Origin: an uncultured bacterium
GTDB taxonomy: Bacteria; Verrucomicrobiota; Verrucomicrobiia; Limisphaerales; UBA8199
DNA: 64,000 nt
Assembly (NCBI GenBank): GCA_963749495.1
Contig: CAVVMW010000004.1
Location: forward strand, 224,001 to 288,000
Reading direction: 5' to 3'
Under the pieces are notes generated by a model. The model worked only from the letters and a program-made list of their open reading frames with translations, ran no database searches and was not told the DNA's origin. Made by a program: the position numbers and the translations under genes. Shown one piece after another: positions 21,011 through 32,256 of this stretch (position 1 is its first letter; each line of letters begins with the position of its first letter).

Positions 21011-21199
21011 TTGACAAAGTTGTAGCGCAGGTTTCCAAACCTGCCGTATCGCCGATTTCCAATCGGCAGGGCGTCGGCATGTCGAGCGCCCCCGGTTTGC
21101 GGACGGCCTGCGGGTTTGGAAACCCGCGATACAGCAGGTTTGGAAACCTGCGCTACGCTGGCGCCCCTGGCGCACGGGCGCGCCGAGCGACTTTGTCAA
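21011..21199. repeat. Intact composite REP/MITE (ttgacaaagt ends enclosing REP family A)
   Basis: Near-identical reverse complement of the split copy 28571-28628 + 31567-31700. Confidence 0.85.
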
Positions 21200-21236
21200 G
21201 GGCCCTGCCTGGGGTTTTTGGGTCCGCGAAAGGGAC

Positions 21237-26984: not shown

Positions 26985-28493
26985 TTGCGAAACGAGAACC
27001 CGATAGCTTCGCTGACCTCGGAGTCCGGCGCCTCGGCTCAGCCCGCCGCCGCCTCGCCGGCGGCCGGTGGCCAGGGCCAGGCCTATCGCGGCCCGTTCGC
27101 GATCATGACGAGCCTCTTCTTCATGTGGGGCGTCATGAATGTCTCGAACGACATCCTGATCCCCCGCTTCAAGGAGGCCTTCGCACTCAGTTACTTCCAG
27201 GCGATGCTGGTCCAGTTCGCCTTCTTCGGCGCCTATTCGATCGGCGGCCTGGCCTATTTTTTGATCTCGATGTACTCTGGCGACCCGATCAACCGCATCG
27301 GCTACAAGAAGGGCGTTATCATCGGCCTGCTCATCTGCGCCTCGGGCAGCGTCTTGTTCTATCCGGCGGCGATGGCGGTTTCGTATCCGTTTTTTCTGAC
27401 CGCGTTGTTCATCGCCGGGCTGGGCCTGGCGATGCTGCAGATAGCCGCCAACCCGTACGTGACCATCCTGGGCTCGGAACGGACGGCCTCGGCACGGCTC
27501 AACCTCTCCCAGGCCTTCAATTCGTTCGGCACGACCATCGGCCCCATCATCGGCGGCTGGCTCATCTTCACGGTGTTCAATCGCCCCGGGGCGCACGGGG
27601 CCGACTCGGTCAAGATCCCCTACCTGGGCTTCGCCGCAGCCTATCTTTTCCTGGCGTTCTTTTTCACCGTTGCCCATGTCCCCAATTTCACGAACAAAGA
27701 GCAGGCGGTGCGCGGCCTTGGCGCTCTCAAGCACCCCCACACGGTCCTGGGGATGATCGCCATCTTCATGTACGTCGGCGGGGAGATCTCCACCGGCAGC
27801 ATCATCGTCAATTTCCTGGGCACCGAGAAGCTGGGCCATGTCCCCAGGGAGATCGCCAGCGGCTACCTGGCCTTTTATTGGGGCGGGCTGATGATCGGGC
27901 GGTTCATGGGCGCGTTTGCCCTGAGCGATATGCGCAAGGCGCTCAAGCACACGCTGGTGGTGGCCGTGCCGGTGACGGCCTTTCTGATCATCCTGTTGTT
28001 GCCGGCCGCGGGCAAGGCCCTGCACCTGGGCTGGGACCGCGCGGCGCTGCTCTGCAGCCTCCCCAATGCCCTGCGCTACGGTGTCTTCCTGGCCGTCCTG
28101 CTCGCCGCCTTTTTCGCGGGCGAATCCAGCCCGCACCGGATGCTGGCGCTCTTCAGCGGCGTCATCCTTGGCCTGATGCTCACGGGCATTGTCAGCGCCG
28201 GCGAAACGGCCAAATGGGCCATCCTGTGCGTCGGGCTGTTCTGTTCGGTGATGTGGTCCAACATCTTCTCATTGGCCATCGAGGGGCTTGGCCCTCTCAA
28301 GAGCCAGGCCTCCTCGCTCCTGGTGGTGGCCATCCTGGGCGGCGCCGTGCTGCCGCCCACGCAGGGCCGGATCGCCGACCTCTACGGCGTTCAGGTCTCC
28401 TTTGTGGTTCCGATGGCGGCCTTTGCTTACATCGCCTTTTACGGGCTCTACGGCTATCGGGCGGGGCGAAACCCGGTCGTGAGCATAGAATAG
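26985..28493 (+). CDS. Sugar MFS transporter (FucP/GluP family)
   Basis: LFFMWG...NDILIP, LVQFAFF.AY, LQIAANPYV, RLNLSQAFNS.GT, FMYVG.E. Confidence 0.93.
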   Translation: MRNENPIASLTSESGASAQPAAASPAAGGQGQAYRGPFAIMTSLFFMWGVMNVSNDILIPRFKEAFALSYFQAMLVQFAFFGAYSIGGLAYFLISMYSGDPINRIGYKKGVIIGLLICASGSVLFYPAAMAVSYPFFLTALFIAGLGLAMLQIAANPYVTILGSERTASARLNLSQAFNSFGTTIGPIIGGWLIFTVFNRPGAHGADSVKIPYLGFAAAYLFLAFFFTVAHVPNFTNKEQAVRGLGALKHPHTVLGMIAIFMYVGGEISTGSIIVNFLGTEKLGHVPREIASGYLAFYWGGLMIGRFMGAFALSDMRKALKHTLVVAVPVTAFLIILLLPAAGKALHLGWDRAALLCSLPNALRYGVFLAVLLAAFFAGESSPHRMLALFSGVILGLMLTGIVSAGETAKWAILCVGLFCSVMWSNIFSLAIEGLGPLKSQASSLLVVAILGGAVLPPTQGRIADLYGVQVSFVVPMAAFAYIAFYGLYGYRAGRNPVVSIE

Positions 28494-28638
28494 AGCCTGT
28501 ACCAACAGCCCCGCGCGTGGGGGACCTTTGTCGCGGCCTTTGTCGCAGCCTTTGTCGAACCGCGGGGCCATTGACAAAGTCGCTCGGCGCGCCGGTGCGC
28601 CAGGGGCGCCAGCGTAGCGCAGGTTTCCGACGGTGGTT

Positions 28639-30735
28639 TCATACTACACCTGGTGCAATTTCGTTTAGGGCTTGCCGGCTTTTTGATTTGGCGATCCGCT
28701 TGGAGTTGGCCACCCAAGCCCGCAACGCCTGCTCTTGTTGGGCCGTCAACGCGATCCACATCCGGCCGTCGGGTTGCGCTTTTCGAGCTGTCACCAGTCC
28801 GTTCTTGAGCCAATAGTGAACCACGTATTGGCTAACGGCAAACTTTTGGCTCAGTTGCTGCACCGTCAACTCGCCGGGTTGTTGCAGCACTGGGGCCGGA
28901 ATGTGGTGCTTGCACCGAATCCAGGCGACCATACTGACGGTAAAAGCTCGGCCTTTGGCGCTTCGGAGGCCTTCCTGGTTCAGGGTGAGGGCAATCTGGC
29001 GGTCGGTCTGTTGCTGGGCGAGTTGCCGCACTTTGCTCACGAGGGCCTCCGTGTAGCGCCAGCGGTCGGCAGCGTTAAGCGGCAGCTCGACCACGAGGTC
29101 CTCGGTGGCCTCTCCTTGCCAGCGCAAATGCAAGATCGCCTGGTGCGTTGCCGGCCGCTTTTCCAGTGTAATATCCTTGAGCAGCAGCCGCAAAATGCAC
29201 TTGCGCTGCTTGGCGGTCGTGGTGGCCGCTTGCCAGAGCCGCGGCAGGTCCTCGGCCAGCAATCGTACCTGGGCCTGTTGCTCCGCCGACAAGGGCGGGG
29301 TTTGCTTTTCCTGATATTGCCGGTATTGCTGGCGCAACCCTTCGAGTTGCTGCAAGGCGTGTTCCCAACGTTGTTCGAGCGTCGCTGCTACCAGACGGTT
29401 GGCCGGATCAACTTCCTCGAAGCGCCGTTGGGCCAACTGCCCTTCATACTCGGCTCGCTGGATTCTGAGCTGCCATTGATGCTCCAACGCCTGGTCGCGC
29501 TGTTCCACCTCCGCCACGGCAGCCAAGGCGATTTCCACCTGCGCCGGCACCAGCGCCGACAAGATCCGCCGGGCGACGGCTTCATCCAGCAGGTCGCCAC
29601 GAACCGACCAGCAGCCTTTGCCTGCCAGTTCTCGCCGCCGCCAGTTGCATTCATACCAAACCAGGCAACCGCCCTGTCCCACGTAACGCGGGGAGAGCCG
29701 GTGCCCGCACTGACCACAGACCAGCAGACCTTGCAGCAGCGCCGGCCCTTCGCGCGCCGCCGAACCGGCGGCGCCAGGGCAAGCGTTGGTTTGGTTCTGC
29801 GCCAGCCGCTGCTGGTTGGCCAGATATTCCTCCCAGGGGATGTAGCCCGGATGTTGGTTGGGCAGGTTCACTTGCCACTCGGCCAAAGGCATAGAGCGGA
29901 CGGTATTGTGCATCTGGCCAGTGGGCGAGAAGTTTTTGCAGGTTCGCCGCCGACCGAATACATAGGCCCCGGCGTAAGCCGGGTTGCGCAATAGACTCAG
30001 GACGCGGCCATGGTTCAAGCGGCCCCACCGCAACTGCCCGTTCCAGACTCCACCGTAGCTGCGCTTGGGGAAGAGCAACTGGTGCTTGGCAAAATGCTGC
30101 ACCACTCCGTAAGCGCTGGCGGTTTGCCCAAAGCTGCTGAAGACCAGGCGCACGGCGCCCTGCACCTCCTGGTCCGGGTCTAAAACGATGCCCTCGGCCT
30201 CGGCATAAACAAAGCCCACCGGCAGGGGAAAACGCAGTTGGCCTTTGCGCGCTTTGTTGAGCTTGCCGCCCTGGAGGCGGACGCGCAAGAAGTGCAGTTC
30301 GGCCTGGGACATCGTACCCTTGAGTCCCAAGAGCAAGCGGTCGTTGAAATCCCCGGGGTTGTAAGCGCCGTCTTCGTCGATGAGCAACGTGCCCGTCCAC
30401 CCACACAAGTCCACTAGCCGATGCCAGTCCAGATCCGAGCGCGACAGGCGGGAGGCCTCCAGGGCGAGAACCGCGCCCACCTTCTGTAAGGAGACCAGCG
30501 ACACCACTCGTTGGAAATCCGGTCGGTTGGCCATCTGGCTGCCCGAGATCCCCAGGTCGCCGTCCAGAGTGAGTATCCGCTCCGGCGGCCAGCCCAGTTG
30601 AAGGGCCTTGTCCCGGAGCGCGTATTGGCGCTCGGTGCTCTCCCGGTGCTGGCGCACTTGGTTGAGGGTCGACTGGCGCAGGTAAATGCAGGCCAGTTTT
30701 TGGCGATGAGTTTCCTGGACCAACTCGGTGTTCAT
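28639..30735 (-). CDS. Large serine recombinase (resolvase + recombinase + Zn ribbon + coiled coil + C-terminal HTH)
   Basis: YLRQST catalytic Ser, DLGISG, SRLSR, LLQGLLVCGQCG, VDPANRLVAATLE. Confidence 0.93.
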   Translation of the reverse strand: MNTELVQETHRQKLACIYLRQSTLNQVRQHRESTERQYALRDKALQLGWPPERILTLDGDLGISGSQMANRPDFQRVVSLVSLQKVGAVLALEASRLSRSDLDWHRLVDLCGWTGTLLIDEDGAYNPGDFNDRLLLGLKGTMSQAELHFLRVRLQGGKLNKARKGQLRFPLPVGFVYAEAEGIVLDPDQEVQGAVRLVFSSFGQTASAYGVVQHFAKHQLLFPKRSYGGVWNGQLRWGRLNHGRVLSLLRNPAYAGAYVFGRRRTCKNFSPTGQMHNTVRSMPLAEWQVNLPNQHPGYIPWEEYLANQQRLAQNQTNACPGAAGSAAREGPALLQGLLVCGQCGHRLSPRYVGQGGCLVWYECNWRRRELAGKGCWSVRGDLLDEAVARRILSALVPAQVEIALAAVAEVEQRDQALEHQWQLRIQRAEYEGQLAQRRFEEVDPANRLVAATLEQRWEHALQQLEGLRQQYRQYQEKQTPPLSAEQQAQVRLLAEDLPRLWQAATTTAKQRKCILRLLLKDITLEKRPATHQAILHLRWQGEATEDLVVELPLNAADRWRYTEALVSKVRQLAQQQTDRQIALTLNQEGLRSAKGRAFTVSMVAWIRCKHHIPAPVLQQPGELTVQQLSQKFAVSQYVVHYWLKNGLVTARKAQPDGRMWIALTAQQEQALRAWVANSKRIAKSKSRQALNEIAPGVV

Positions 30736-30862
30736 AAGCAGCGTTGGCCGCCCAAGGCGGCGGAGGCAAGGGTGCGCCAGCCCGACGGAACGCCTGGAGC
30801 ATGGTGGCGACCACCTGCGCCACCGGCCGGGGATCGATCCGCAAGGCCGCCGGCTGCATCGC

Positions 30863-31195
30863 TCAGACCTTCTCCTGGCGGCGTAAGAGTTGGCGGTTGA
30901 TGTCGCATATCTGTTCCAACAGATGGCGCACGTGCTGAAAGTTTTTTATCAGGGCTTGGACCTGGGCGTGCTGCTGCTGAGAGAGGTATTGGAGTTGGGG
31001 ACGGCCGTGGGGATAGCTGACCGACAAATAGTATTTGGGACCGTGACCGCGGCCGGAGGCGCAGTGGCAACCGGGCTTGCCGCAGGGCAGGTATCGCTCG
31101 ATGAGCGAGCCGCGAACCACGCGCCGGGCCAAAGGAGGCAGGCGTTGGATCAAGGCCTGGCGTTTGCGGCGCAGGCTGGCGATGGAAGCGGGCAT
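30863..31195 (-). CDS. DUF6788-like small Cys/His protein
   Basis: RGSL.ERY..CGKPGCHC...HGPKYYLS motif. Confidence 0.75.
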   Translation of the reverse strand: MPASIASLRRKRQALIQRLPPLARRVVRGSLIERYLPCGKPGCHCASGRGHGPKYYLSVSYPHGRPQLQYLSQQQHAQVQALIKNFQHVRHLLEQICDINRQLLRRQEKV

Positions 31196-31196
31196 G

Positions 31197-31254
31197 ATTA
31201 TCAGAACAGTTAAATAACTGTTCTGATAATGGATCGGTCAAGGGCATCTGTCAA
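31197..31254 (-). promoter_or_regulatory. Element promoter (TTGACA-N17-CATTAT) with perfect 16-bp palindrome
   Basis: attatcagaacagtta-aa-taactgttctgataat (31197-31230), overlapping the -10 element and ending just before ATG 31195. Confidence 0.6.
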
Positions 31255-31567
31255 CTCCTTTCTGGTTCGAAGAGGCCGGCGGGCCGGACGCCTTCAACTG
31301 CCGCAGCAGTTGCACCAACTCCAGCAGTGCGGGCGCCGACAGCCGGCGCGCGGTCCCCGCGCTCGTCGGCACCGCCTTGTCGGTCCAGTCCTCCAAAATG
31401 GAAAAGGTGCCACCTTCTCCCCCCTCCAGAATCAGCGTGGCCTGACCGCGGTAGCGCCGGGCTTCGACCACCCGGAACCGCTCTCCGCGCCGGGGATGGA
31501 AGGGGTGGGTGATTACCGCCCATCCCAAAAGTTCACCTGCACCATGTGCAGTTCGCACTAACTGTCC
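31238..31567 (-). CDS. DUF5372 (Y4bD/Y4pK)-like protein; 5' end located at the opposite element end
   Basis: ITHPFHP..G..F...WTD...L..L..L motif; no ATG in the integrated state. Confidence 0.7.
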   Translation of the reverse strand, partial: GQLVRTAHGAGELLGWAVITHPFHPRRGERFRVVEARRYRGQATLILEGGEGGTFSILEDWTDKAVPTSAGTARRLSAPALLELVQLLRQLKASGPPASSNQKGVDRCP

Positions 31568-31749
31568 CAAACCTGCTGTATCGCGGGTTTCCAAACCCGC
31601 AGGCCATCCGCAAACCGGGGGCGCTCGACATGCCGACGCCCTGCCGATTTGGAAATCGGCGATACGGCAGGTTTGGAAACCTGCGCTACAACTTTGTCAA
31701 CGGCCCTCTGTCGAACCGGCCAAGTCTCGACAAAGGCGGAAACGAGTGC

Positions 31750-32256
31750 TCAGCGCCGCGGGCTTTGGGCCGGCAGCGGGAGGGTCTCGCCGGTGGCGTT
31801 GGAGGTCGAGTGATAGGTGCCCGGCTGGAGACCGCTGAGGGGATCGGTGGTCTGATAATGGCGCCAGGCGAAGAAGCCTGCCAGCAGCGCCCCCGCCAGG
31901 ATCAAGACTCCCAAGGCCAGCAGGCCGCGGCGCCAATCCACTTTCGAGAGTTGGAGCATGAAGGAGTCCAGCATCCCGCGCGGCTCGTTCGAGAGTGCCG
32001 GCGGTTCGGCGAACTTGGCCGTCTGGCGCAGTTCCTTGTCGAGGTCGGCCATGACCTGCGGCACGTCCAGCTTGAGCAGCGTCGCGCAGGAGCGCACGAA
32101 GCCCCGGATATAGACCGGCGCGGAGAAAATGTCGAAATTGCCTTCCTCCAGGGCGTGCAGATGGTCGGTGCGGATCTTAGTGATCTCCGCCACCTGCTGG
32201 ATGGTGAGACGCCGGGCCTCCCGGCCGTCCCGAAGTTGCTGGGCCACCGTGGACAT
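31750..32256 (-). CDS. RodZ-like HTH membrane protein
   Basis: QLR..RE...TKIR..HL.ALEEG.F.....VYIRGFVRS.A..L.LD followed by a TM helix. Confidence 0.85.
   Translation of the reverse strand: MSTVAQQLRDGREARRLTIQQVAEITKIRTDHLHALEEGNFDIFSAPVYIRGFVRSCATLLKLDVPQVMADLDKELRQTAKFAEPPALSNEPRGMLDSFMLQLSKVDWRRGLLALGVLILAGALLAGFFAWRHYQTTDPLSGLQPGTYHSTSNATGETLPLPAQSPRR

Follow-up and report, generated by a model that had tools for sequence, protein, structure and literature searches.

How could a mobile element express a gene whose start codon lies at one of its ends and whose body lies at the other? This question is raised by an element in the window, by which we mean the whole 64,000-nucleotide stretch of DNA that was analysed. 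The element spans positions 28627..31568 on the minus strand (2942 bp, counting both GG crossovers) and carries three genes, all on the minus strand: DUF5372, DUF6788 and a 698-aa large serine recombinase.

The element and its target site

The ends of the element are real, as six copies in the genome (99.3–100% identity) have identical junctions throughout and empty sites join the same flanks with a single GG. There are 174 target-like empty sites in the genome, 60 of them exact, in which the flanks meet in this way, and the element boundaries coincide with the exact limits of alignments to relatives sharing 80–90% identity. The crossover is 2 bp long, with GG present once in empty sites and at each end in occupied sites, and here it is positioned in the loop of a REP-like hairpin. 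The repeat at 31569..31660 matches about 35 or more further places in the genome at 95–98%. The following features define the element and its target:

28627..31568, minus strand: whole element, defined by the six copies, the empty sites and the alignment limits of relatives
31567..31568, minus strand: crossover GG at the 5' (attL-side) end, reading CC on the plus strand, from occupied versus empty sites
28627..28628, minus strand: crossover GG at the 3' (attR-side) end, from occupied versus empty sites
31569..31660, minus strand: REP-like repeat, upstream half of the split target, with in-frame TTG codons at 31594 and 31570
28560..28626, minus strand: REP-like repeat, downstream half of the split target, from genome repeat matches and empty sites

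The genome assembly does not contain the exact attP pattern, and a loose version of it matched none of 158 loci and hit the genome only by chance. A run search listed 15 DNA runs but none of RNA, and low-depth contigs from four sediment-metagenome runs, compared with positions 28400–31800, showed no joints, a depth too low to bear on a circle or an empty site at this locus. A first search of reference-genome contigs returned no close relatives, and among 401 genomes of the phylum the search recovered this genome and one weak match only.

A gene split across attP

The DUF5372 gene body begins at the second base of the 5'-end crossover and is recognised by the Pfam profile PF17342 (48.3 bits against a cut-off of 25, residues 28–99). 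Its homologs carry the RefSeq product name 'Y4bD/Y4pK family protein', and an NCBIfam search with the window's DUF5372 protein gave no match. The original prediction held that the gene has no ATG in its integrated form, and that an ATG at the opposite end of the element (28642-28640) overlaps the recombinase stop codon and is preceded by AGGTG; all of this is present in the sequence, in which no in-frame ATG precedes the domain and the AGGTG is a weak one. The features of the junction are:

31238..31567, minus strand: DUF5372 (Y4bD/Y4pK family) gene body, 109 codons plus stop, with no ATG
28640..28642, minus strand: junction start codon ATG, reading outward, 14 nt from the crossover and overlapping the recombinase TGA (28641-28639) as ATGA
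28629..28662, minus strand: 3'-terminal attP arm, 34 nt, containing the ATG, the weak AGGTG and the arm motifs that also occur at the other end
31533..31566, minus strand: 5'-terminal attP arm, 34 nt, doubling as codons 10–21 of the DUF5372 reading frame

Joining the two ends in silico gives an open frame of 114 codons with the junction ATG in phase with DUF5372, the 114-aa in-frame protein that had been proposed, to which the extreme 3' end contributes the start codon and five codons. We thus confirm that the gene is split.

Conservation of the split layout among relatives

The family is sizeable, with 404 relatives in one-genome-per-species contigs, of which the best 80 were fetched, and 1224 protein clusters. 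From 127 fetched loci we assembled a superfamily set of 48 distinct elements in which both ends are present and the recombinase open-reading frame has at least 600 codons. Loss of the attP-crossing frame among homologs had been named as the finding that would speak against the original prediction; instead the junction frame was open and in phase with DUF5372 in 48/48 distinct relatives from several phyla, and this conservation of the frame across attP supports the interpretation. The junction start codon was ATG in 47 of the 48 and GTG in the remaining one, whilst the crossover dinucleotide was the same at both ends in 46 (29 GG, 16 CC and 1 GT). As phase, start codon and matching crossover recur in 46–48 of 48 distinct relatives, the arrangement is beyond chance, and it is kept across Acidobacteriota, Burkholderiales, Desulfobacterota and the present genome.

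The recombinase stop lies 13–50 nt upstream of the junction ATG in 20 of the 48 elements, where the ATG is still kept, and three elements carry ATGC rather than ATGA, from which it follows that the ATG, not the TGA, is the conserved feature. A core Shine–Dalgarno (SD) 4-mer precedes the junction ATG in 38/47 elements and is found at the mirror position of the other arm in just 3/47, which places the SD outside the symmetric recombinase site. The window's own subfamily has no core SD at the junction ATG (0/9). It includes 19 elements with both ends; the recombinase is intact in 17, and in all of these the junction frame is open over 106–116 codons, starting with ATG in 16 and GTG in one. Stop codons in codons −20 to −8 before the domain were found in none of 81 sequences in frame 0, against 34/81 and 33/81 in the other two frames; counted by family, frame-0 stops were seen in 0/38 where shuffles predict about seven. 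Judged from these alignments, conservation of the att site alone is not a sufficient account of the stop-displaced ATG, the arm-specific SD and the stop-free frame 0. At the level of DNA sequence, the comparison establishes that the architecture is split and that it is conserved.

Codon 14 of one relative, L060, is an in-frame TGA; we rejected this relative as a counterexample to the split reading frame since its recombinase is also broken.

Most relatives are inserted in group II intron reverse-transcriptase genes, elements of the GG type being antisense and those of the CC type sense with respect to the reverse-transcriptase gene.

The attP arms and the leader codons

The two arms form an imperfect dyad: a hand count of one arm against the reverse complement of the other gives 20 matches in 29 positions. 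The motifs GTGCA(G/T)T and AC(C)GTC are common to both arms and conserved across 47 elements. Within the subfamily, variants in codons 10–18 of the DUF5372 frame comprise 2 synonymous and 13 non-synonymous codons, and this ratio indicates that the stretch is constrained as DNA. In these alignments, protein-level selection on the leader peptide is not visible within the subfamily. The missing indels in the arm region could similarly be owing to site geometry, since the ATG and codons 10–21 sit within attP arms that are conserved as DNA. The conserved leader residues R-T-A were considered as a sign of protein selection and rejected, because the underlying ACTGCA mirrors a TGCAGT at equal distance on the other arm and changes in the stretch are mostly non-synonymous.

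Promoter, operator and the operon genes

31226..31254, minus strand: sigma-70-like promoter TTGACA-17-CATTAT, in the 3' end of DUF5372 and pointing to DUF6788 and the recombinase
31197..31230, minus strand: operator-like perfect palindrome with 16-bp arms, between the −10 box and the DUF6788 start
30863..31195, minus strand: DUF6788 gene, 110 aa
28639..30735, minus strand: large serine recombinase, 698 aa, with a C-terminal HTH-like extension

The original prediction placed the sole evident promoter in the 3' end of DUF5372, and we found the site at 31226..31254 to be the only promoter-like sequence on either strand between 28400 and 31900. Of 47 distinct relatives, 41 have an equivalent promoter behind DUF5372, and in 26 its −35 box overlaps the DUF5372 stop; a related palindrome is present in 44/47. 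DUF6788 matches Pfam PF20586 (91.8 bits, cut-off 27.2) and has four invariant residues, C38, C43, C45 and H51; its AlphaFold2 model has a pLDDT of 84.9, and a fold search gave no match with E ≤ 0.001.

The recombinase contains Resolvase (PF00239, 66.6 bits), Recombinase (PF07508, 55.6) and Zn_ribbon_recom (PF13408, 37.8) domains, all above their cut-offs, and a weak MerR_1 match at residues 624–654. At the sequence level, the catalytic-serine motif (R-x-S-T) is YLRQST at residues 18–23; across 24 relatives Y18, Q21 and T23 do not vary at all, and R20 and S22 hardly vary. The protein shares 53–58% identity with relatives from other phyla.

The host gene upstream of the element (31750-32256) is oriented like DUF5372, and read-through from it could hence transcribe the integrated copy.

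Internal starts and alternative explanations

The original prediction had cautioned that an in-frame GTG (31558) or a TTG in the REP-like repeat (31594) might act as weak internal starts. Both codons are in the sequence, and the list is incomplete, as it missed a TTG at 31570-31568, which straddles the attL crossover, and another at 31528-31526. Two candidates fall within the element:

31556..31558, minus strand: candidate internal start GTG, codon 13
31526..31528, minus strand: candidate internal start TTG, codon 23, with AGGTGA before it and at the start of the predicted fold

The AlphaFold2 model of DUF5372 (118-aa open-reading frame, mean pLDDT 81.8) contains a small beta-barrel at about residues 21–73 and a helix at 87–103. 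Its confident fold starts at residues 21–24, at the codon-23 TTG, and residues 1–22 are predicted to be disordered. Fold searches with the model found only generic SH3/KOW/Tudor-like barrels (best Foldseek E = 0.013; VIA Z = 5.0–5.7), and from model matches of this type, with Z of about 5, no function is assignable to DUF5372.

These starts matter, as DUF5372 could instead be an ordinary gene that begins at the codon-23 TTG or the codon-13 GTG and is transcribed in the integrated state by read-through from the host flank, the in-frame ATG at the other end being a by-product of conserved recombinase-binding arms that lack stops. We regard this as unlikely on balance. The position of the predicted fold would fit such a start, as would the leader codons, in which selection on the protein is not apparent, and a Burkholderia homolog annotated with an internal start in RefSeq. 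The codon-23 position (codon −7 from the domain) is TTG in 66 of 82 distinct 5' regions, the other codons listed there being TTA, TCG or TGG, each one step from TTG; the codon-13 position (codon −17) is GTG or ATG in 30 of 82, and is a non-start codon in relatives L034, L037, L059/L072 and L070. In the window's subfamily a relaxed SD (AGGTGA or similar) precedes the TTG in 9/9 elements, which have no core SD before the ATG; across the wider set, however, a core SD precedes the TTG in just 4/47 elements, and it is the junction ATG that has an SD specific to its arm. In ten of the 82 distinct 5' regions, ATG, GTG and TTG are all missing upstream of the HPFHP motif, and some of these regions are from multi-copy, apparently active elements, including a Bryobacterales element found at nine places in one genome (L100, L101, L106, L107, L109-L113); a distant element with a 41% identical DUF5372 is likewise start-less, with phase and spacing unchanged. 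An ordinary internally started gene also sits poorly with an ATG that outlasts relocation of the recombinase stop in 20/48 elements, with a frame 0 free of stops above the TTG where about 7/38 families would be expected to have one, and with the finding of no promoter upstream of DUF5372 inside the elements. On sequence grounds, the SD-like internal TTG of the window's subfamily nevertheless remains a live alternative start.

Alternatively, the SD and ATG that face outward from the 3' end might act in the integrated state, starting translation of the adjoining target DNA so as, for instance, to restart or poison the reverse-transcriptase gene that the element interrupts, with no relation to DUF5372. 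The location of most relatives within group II intron reverse-transcriptase genes would suit this, as would one distant family in which another ATG, located a few bases further upstream, shares its frame with the reverse-transcriptase fragment on the downstream side. The conserved ATG, however, does not share the reverse-transcriptase frame in the sense-oriented family that we examined, and is kept in both insertion orientations and here within a non-coding REP-like repeat; together with the phase to DUF5372, unbroken in 48/48, this makes translation into the flank highly improbable.

Proposed mechanism

The reading that we prefer, and consider probable, is that DUF5372 is split by attP, is completed by excision and is translated through the recombinase-coupled ATGA, its 114-aa product being a signal of the free element. 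The compact transposon-like element would be moved by its large serine recombinase, which would cut and rejoin DNA at the 2-bp crossover. The internal promoter behind DUF5372 would drive DUF6788 and then the recombinase, with the transcript exiting via the 3' end; as this is the only conserved promoter, integrated DUF5372 appears to have no promoter of its own (and has no ATG). Excision would presumably form a circle in which the ends are joined and the operon transcript crosses attP, and ribosomes ending the recombinase could then restart at the ATGA overlap, using the junction ATG, and continue in frame into DUF5372. The 114-aa product would signal that the element is free, most plausibly by acting on the recombinase–attP complex or on the promoter's operator, and its action would tilt the system toward re-integration. 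In the window's subfamily, the SD-like TTG at codon 23 may add a shorter core protein under outside transcription.

More tentatively, the split gene may serve as an internal sensor of topology by which the direction of the serine recombinase is set, a possibility to which we give less credence than to its being wrong. Expression of DUF6788 and the recombinase alone from the integrated element would correspond to an excision mode and expression of DUF5372 from the circle to an integration mode, with DUF5372 acting against an excision factor, on the recombinase–attP complex or on the operator. If so, a three-gene element would obtain directionality without host input. Under the same reading, the family would also change targets among motifs that are conserved in other mobile DNA, namely REP hairpins and the reverse-transcriptase genes of group II introns.

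The locus offers a case in which the idea that a mobile element senses its own topology can be tested, and a first hypothesis for two domains of unknown function, DUF5372 and DUF6788. It is also relevant to annotation, as gene callers place arbitrary starts in DUF5372 or extend the open-reading frame into flanking genes, and the recombinases are compact and site-specific with natural changes of target, which makes them of interest for genome engineering.

Comparison with known systems

State-dependent expression through a promoter formed by end joining is known from Tn4451, IS circles and ICEKp1. In the clostridial transposons Tn4451 and Tn4453, as Lyras and Rood reportedly described in 2000, the joined ends of the circle form a promoter for the recombinase TnpX. 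These transposons resemble the present element in having a large serine recombinase, an excised circle and an expression signal that arises from joined ends. They differ in what the joint provides, which in Tn4451 is a promoter for the recombinase, whereas here it is a start codon for an accessory gene body, accompanied in most relatives (the window's subfamily excepted) by a ribosome-binding site. The conserved promoter that we found is internal and fixed, and the gene content, including the DUF5372/DUF6788 pair, differs from that of Tn4451.

The window element and the NGRIS-4 / Y4bD-Y4pK elements of Sinorhizobium NGR234 probably belong to the same superfamily, as RefSeq DUF5372 homologs named 'Y4bD/Y4pK' adjoin DUF6788 and a recombinase. 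NGRIS-4 is reportedly a four-ORF element with the gene set y4bD-y4bC-y4bB-y4bA of pNGR234a; it would differ from the three-gene element here, its only link to which is the RefSeq product name of the DUF5372 homologs. A match to a Sinorhizobium plasmid was weak (38.8% identity, E = 8e-4), in a record whose gene table is incomplete.

Three further systems can be compared. In ICEKp1, ligation of the 3' and 5' ends is described as allowing a promoter at the 3' end to drive a 5'-end gene in the excised form only, and this promoter switching has been proposed to bias the element toward integration. The likeness is that end ligation gates expression of a 5'-end gene to the excised form; in that account, however, the element is large and conjugative with a tyrosine integrase, the integrase itself is gated, and control is transcriptional only, with an unsplit open-reading frame. 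Mycobacteriophage BPs has integration-dependent immunity with attP inside a coding sequence, as in DUF5372, and products that differ between the integrated and free forms. It is a tyrosine-integrase phage in which the repressor gene exchanges its 3' end and thereby loses a degradation tag, with translation of both forms, whereas in the present element the 5' end is removed, with the start codon and, in most relatives, also the ribosome-binding site. The SSV-type 'suicidal' integrases of archaeal viruses and plasmids, which a review describes as exclusive to archaea, have the recombination site inside an element gene that is whole only as a circle, and share with the present element a gene complete only in the circular form. 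There the tyrosine integrase gene is itself cut into two large parts in an archaeal setting; here, in contrast, the host is bacterial, the serine recombinase stays whole and only the initiation region of an accessory gene is lost.

A search outside subscription journals of the literature on DUF5372, NGRIS-4, y4bD/y4pK/y4bA and serine recombinases with circular forms found no split-gene account, and titles and the starts of abstracts on large serine recombinases and group II introns, among the matches listed, contained nothing on the present family. Expression that depends on the integrated or free state is known in three forms: an end-joined promoter, an attP that falls in the 3' portion of a repressor gene, as in phage BPs, and an attP in the integrase gene itself (archaeal SSV-type). 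Here the recombination site parts the start codon of an accessory gene, in most relatives together with the ribosome-binding site, from its body, in a very small bacterial serine-recombinase element.

The split gene and its predicted promoter

The element occupies window positions 31568–28627 on the minus strand, and its three genes are co-directional:

DUF5372 ORF, stop end at 31238, minus strand
DUF6788 ORF, 31195–30863, minus strand
Large serine recombinase of 698 aa, 30735–28639, minus strand, with Resolvase, Recombinase and zinc-ribbon domains

The body of the DUF5372 gene lies at the 5′ end of the element and its proposed start ATG (28642–28640) at the 3′ end, overlapping the recombinase TGA (28641–28639), and the two are in frame once the ends are joined. 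No in-frame ATG was found in the DUF5372 frame of the integrated element, where the candidate starts are TTG 31594 and TTG 31570, which lie in or straddle the flank, GTG 31558 and TTG 31528. The original prediction had proposed that circularisation rebuilds this gene across attP (the joined ends in the excised circle), and every one of its coordinates proved correct on the sequence. It also placed the sole evident promoter in the 3′ end of this ORF, where we find TTGACA-17-CATTAT (31254–31226, minus strand), the only sigma-70-like site in window 28400–31900; after it comes a perfect palindrome (31230–31197, arms of 16 bp) that directly precedes the DUF6788 ATG. A related palindrome is present in 44 of 47 distinct relatives and a promoter-like pair ending at it in 41, while the −35 box shares bases with the stop codon of DUF5372 in 26. 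Given this conserved layout, DUF5372 in every family is placed upstream of the promoter that the element carries and within 60 nt of the element end. The putative promoter and palindromic operator are conserved across phyla as a CAGACCAG...CTGGTCTG type, reading CAGAACAG...CTGTTCTG in the window (31197–31254).

The source genome (11.37 Mb, 31 contigs) holds six copies of the element, 99.3–100% identical with identical junctions, flanked by a REP-like repeat. A 30-base pattern of the uninterrupted site (up to 4 substitutions, both strands) matched 174 places in the genome, 60 of them exactly; attL and attR, the 5′ and 3′ ends of the integrated copy, matched six times each, and the pattern search of the genome returned no attP. 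As the junctions are identical and the two flanks overlap by two bases in empty REP copies, the element measures 2942 bp counting the GG at each end, and the insertion point is the loop of the hairpin GCAGGTTT-GG-AAACCTGC. An unoccupied repeat copy lies ~7 kb away at window 21051–21208 (G000:C4:245051–245208), a ready-made empty target since the query-flank halves abut there with a 2-base overlap. Chance matches to a loose attP pattern fell in a long array of near-identical units spaced ~291–303 bp apart (G000:C23:280572–285933), probably a large repetitive protein gene.

Relatives and their target sites

A metagenome scan gave 47 relative loci. In 43 of them the DNA alignment (76–90% identity to the element) has the leading G of the 5′ GG as its first base, and in 18 it stops exactly at the 3′ GG. 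Instead of REPs, their flanks hold the RPLGIP-TVRDR region of reverse transcriptases, read in antisense. Relatives L030–L073 (76–90% DNA identity) lie in group II intron reverse-transcriptase genes at the RPLGIP motif, whereas all six copies in the source genome lie in the REP hairpin, which has no evident similarity to the RPLGIP site (compared with window 28560–28626 and 31569–31660). The difference suggests a recent switch of target. Four reverse-transcriptase-like genes are present in the source genome, with an insertion shown in none of them.

Sampling one genome per species, a further scan recovered 404 relatives; the 80 best were fetched, from Burkholderiales, Acidobacteriota, Desulfobacterota and other groups. 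RefSeq labels at such loci, which lie within a reverse-transcriptase gene, read Y4bD/Y4pK family protein, DUF6788 family protein and recombinase. This superfamily (L077–L156, e.g. L101, L124, L137) has a GG type, antisense to the reverse-transcriptase gene, and a CC type, sense to it, in the cases read in detail, and L137 has GT at both ends; such natural dinucleotide variation confirms the place of exchange. One distant relative (DUF5372 41% identical), in sense orientation with a CC crossover, interrupts a gene with RVT_1 and group II intron maturase domains. A profile search returned 1224 representatives of DUF5372 clusters. In many the called protein has a long N-terminal extension, which is RPLGIP read in the +1 frame or, in one case, an in-frame reverse-transcriptase fusion. 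In many assemblies the element is a stand-alone contig of ~2.9–3.2 kb (L088, L120, L129, L096, L108 and others), the 2942-bp L088 contig starting on the second base of a crossover and reaching the opposite one; these probably reflect repeat collapse in assembly and are no evidence of circles.

The frame across attP is conserved

Among 19 elements with both ends in the subfamily (the window element's close relatives), the junction frame was open over 106–116 codons in all 17 with an intact recombinase, starting with ATG in 16 and GTG in one; L048 and L060 have broken recombinases and were not scorable, L060 also having a TGA at codon 14. For all fetched loci the 5′ crossover was set 61–60 nt before the H of the HPFHP motif and the 3′ crossover 14–15 nt after the ATG. 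From 115 loci with a 5′ end, 49 were dropped because no recombinase ORF reached 600 codons (many cut at contig ends, others broken) and five for missing the 3′ pattern; of these five, L064 and L066 carry the ATG and an open frame all the same. The remaining 61 loci represent 48 distinct elements.

Junctions of the 48 distinct elements
Junction frame open: 48/48
Junction start: ATG 47/48, GTG 1/48
Same crossover dinucleotide at both ends: 46/48 (29 GG, 16 CC, 1 GT)
Recombinase stop overlapping the ATG: 27/48
Recombinase stop 13–50 nt upstream, ATG kept: 20/48

The predicted conservation of the frame among homologs is thus borne out. Of the two dinucleotide mismatches, one comes from a pattern artefact (L049 group, also the one element missing from the two stop counts) and the other from a 1-nt offset (L146). 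ATGC stands in place of ATGA in three elements, so it is not the TGA that is conserved; the crossover-to-HPFHP distance is 20 codons in all loci but two.

Site conservation, candidate internal starts and codon variation

Some of this conservation belongs to the site. Both arms carry GTGCA(G/T)T ~15–21 nt from the crossover and AC(C)GTC adjoining it, and conservation of codons T15-A16 (ACT GCA) is a DNA feature because the arms share those motifs. Within the subfamily, variation in codons 10–18 is mostly non-synonymous (2 synonymous, 13 non-synonymous), and codons 23–84 have 99 synonymous and 153 non-synonymous changes with a third-position excess (104, 85 and 174 at positions 1, 2 and 3). Three observations are not accounted for by att-site conservation alone. 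The core Shine-Dalgarno 4-mer is arm-specific, found in the 3′ arm of 38/47 elements but in only 3/47 at the corresponding mirror position in the 5′ arm. Frame 0 is free of stops from 20 to 8 codons before the domain (0/81 distinct sequences, with 34 and 33 in the other frames; by family, 0 of 38 with 13 and 14 in the others, ~7 being expected on shuffling the variable part). Finally, ATG, GTG and TTG are all absent before HPFHP in 10 of 82 distinct 5′ regions, including a Bryobacterales element (nine places fetched, one genome), a Vicinamibacterales element (three copies) and the distant family.

Candidate internal starts limit the split-gene reading. A TTG stands at codon −7 in 66 of the 82 5′ regions, the alternatives being TTA, TCG or TGG where codons were printed, and it resembles a start codon liable to loss; codon −17 is GTG or ATG in 30. 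In the AlphaFold2 model of the 118-aa DUF5372 ORF (mean pLDDT 81.8) residues 1–22 are of low confidence and the first strand spans residues 24–28, so a protein begun at the TTG would hold the whole fold. As to ribosome-binding sites, the subfamily of the window element departs from the rest: a core Shine-Dalgarno before the junction ATG is absent from all nine members, which seem to rely on the ATGA overlap, and in all nine the internal TTG is preceded by AGGTGA or a motif like it. The upstream host gene, co-directional with DUF5372, also counts as limiting evidence.

Encoded proteins

DUF5372 is predicted to form a small SH3/KOW-like barrel with a C-terminal helix (VIA Z = 5.0–5.7, residues 21–73; Foldseek best E = 0.013). 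DUF6788 has invariant C38, C43, C45 and H51 and a predicted long C-terminal helix (pLDDT 84.9), and the fold search found no match. The recombinase is 53–58% identical across phyla, the accessory proteins less; it has an HTH-like stretch at its C-terminus, where an extension (residues about 612–654, window 28639–28900) resembles weakly a MerR/HTH_17 helix-turn-helix, also in the distant family. A second, 31% identical DUF5372 homolog in the genome (G000:C10:461638–461931; L028:1408–1866) is preceded by an ATG in frame, and part of its N-terminus resembles codons 15–22 of the element gene with synonymous differences; no recombinase was found among its adjoining co-directional ORFs.

A proposed state-dependent product and its precedents

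At the level of sequence, we show the anatomy of the split gene and its conservation. In the integrated state the internal promoter would drive expression of DUF6788 and of the recombinase. Once the element is excised, that transcript would cross attP, and translation from the junction ATG, in the window element coupled to recombinase termination, would yield full-length DUF5372. We tentatively suggest a role in promoting re-integration or in shutting the operator, as a circle-specific product makes little sense as an excision trigger. In literature outside subscription journals we found no published account of DUF5372, NGRIS-4 or the split-gene layout. State-dependent expression itself has precedents. 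Tn4451 reportedly has a junction promoter. Promoter switching in ICEKp1, integration-dependent immunity in BPs and the archaeal suicidal integrases offer others, and none of the four systems is known to part a start codon (or ribosome-binding site and start codon) from the body of an accessory gene, as this element does.
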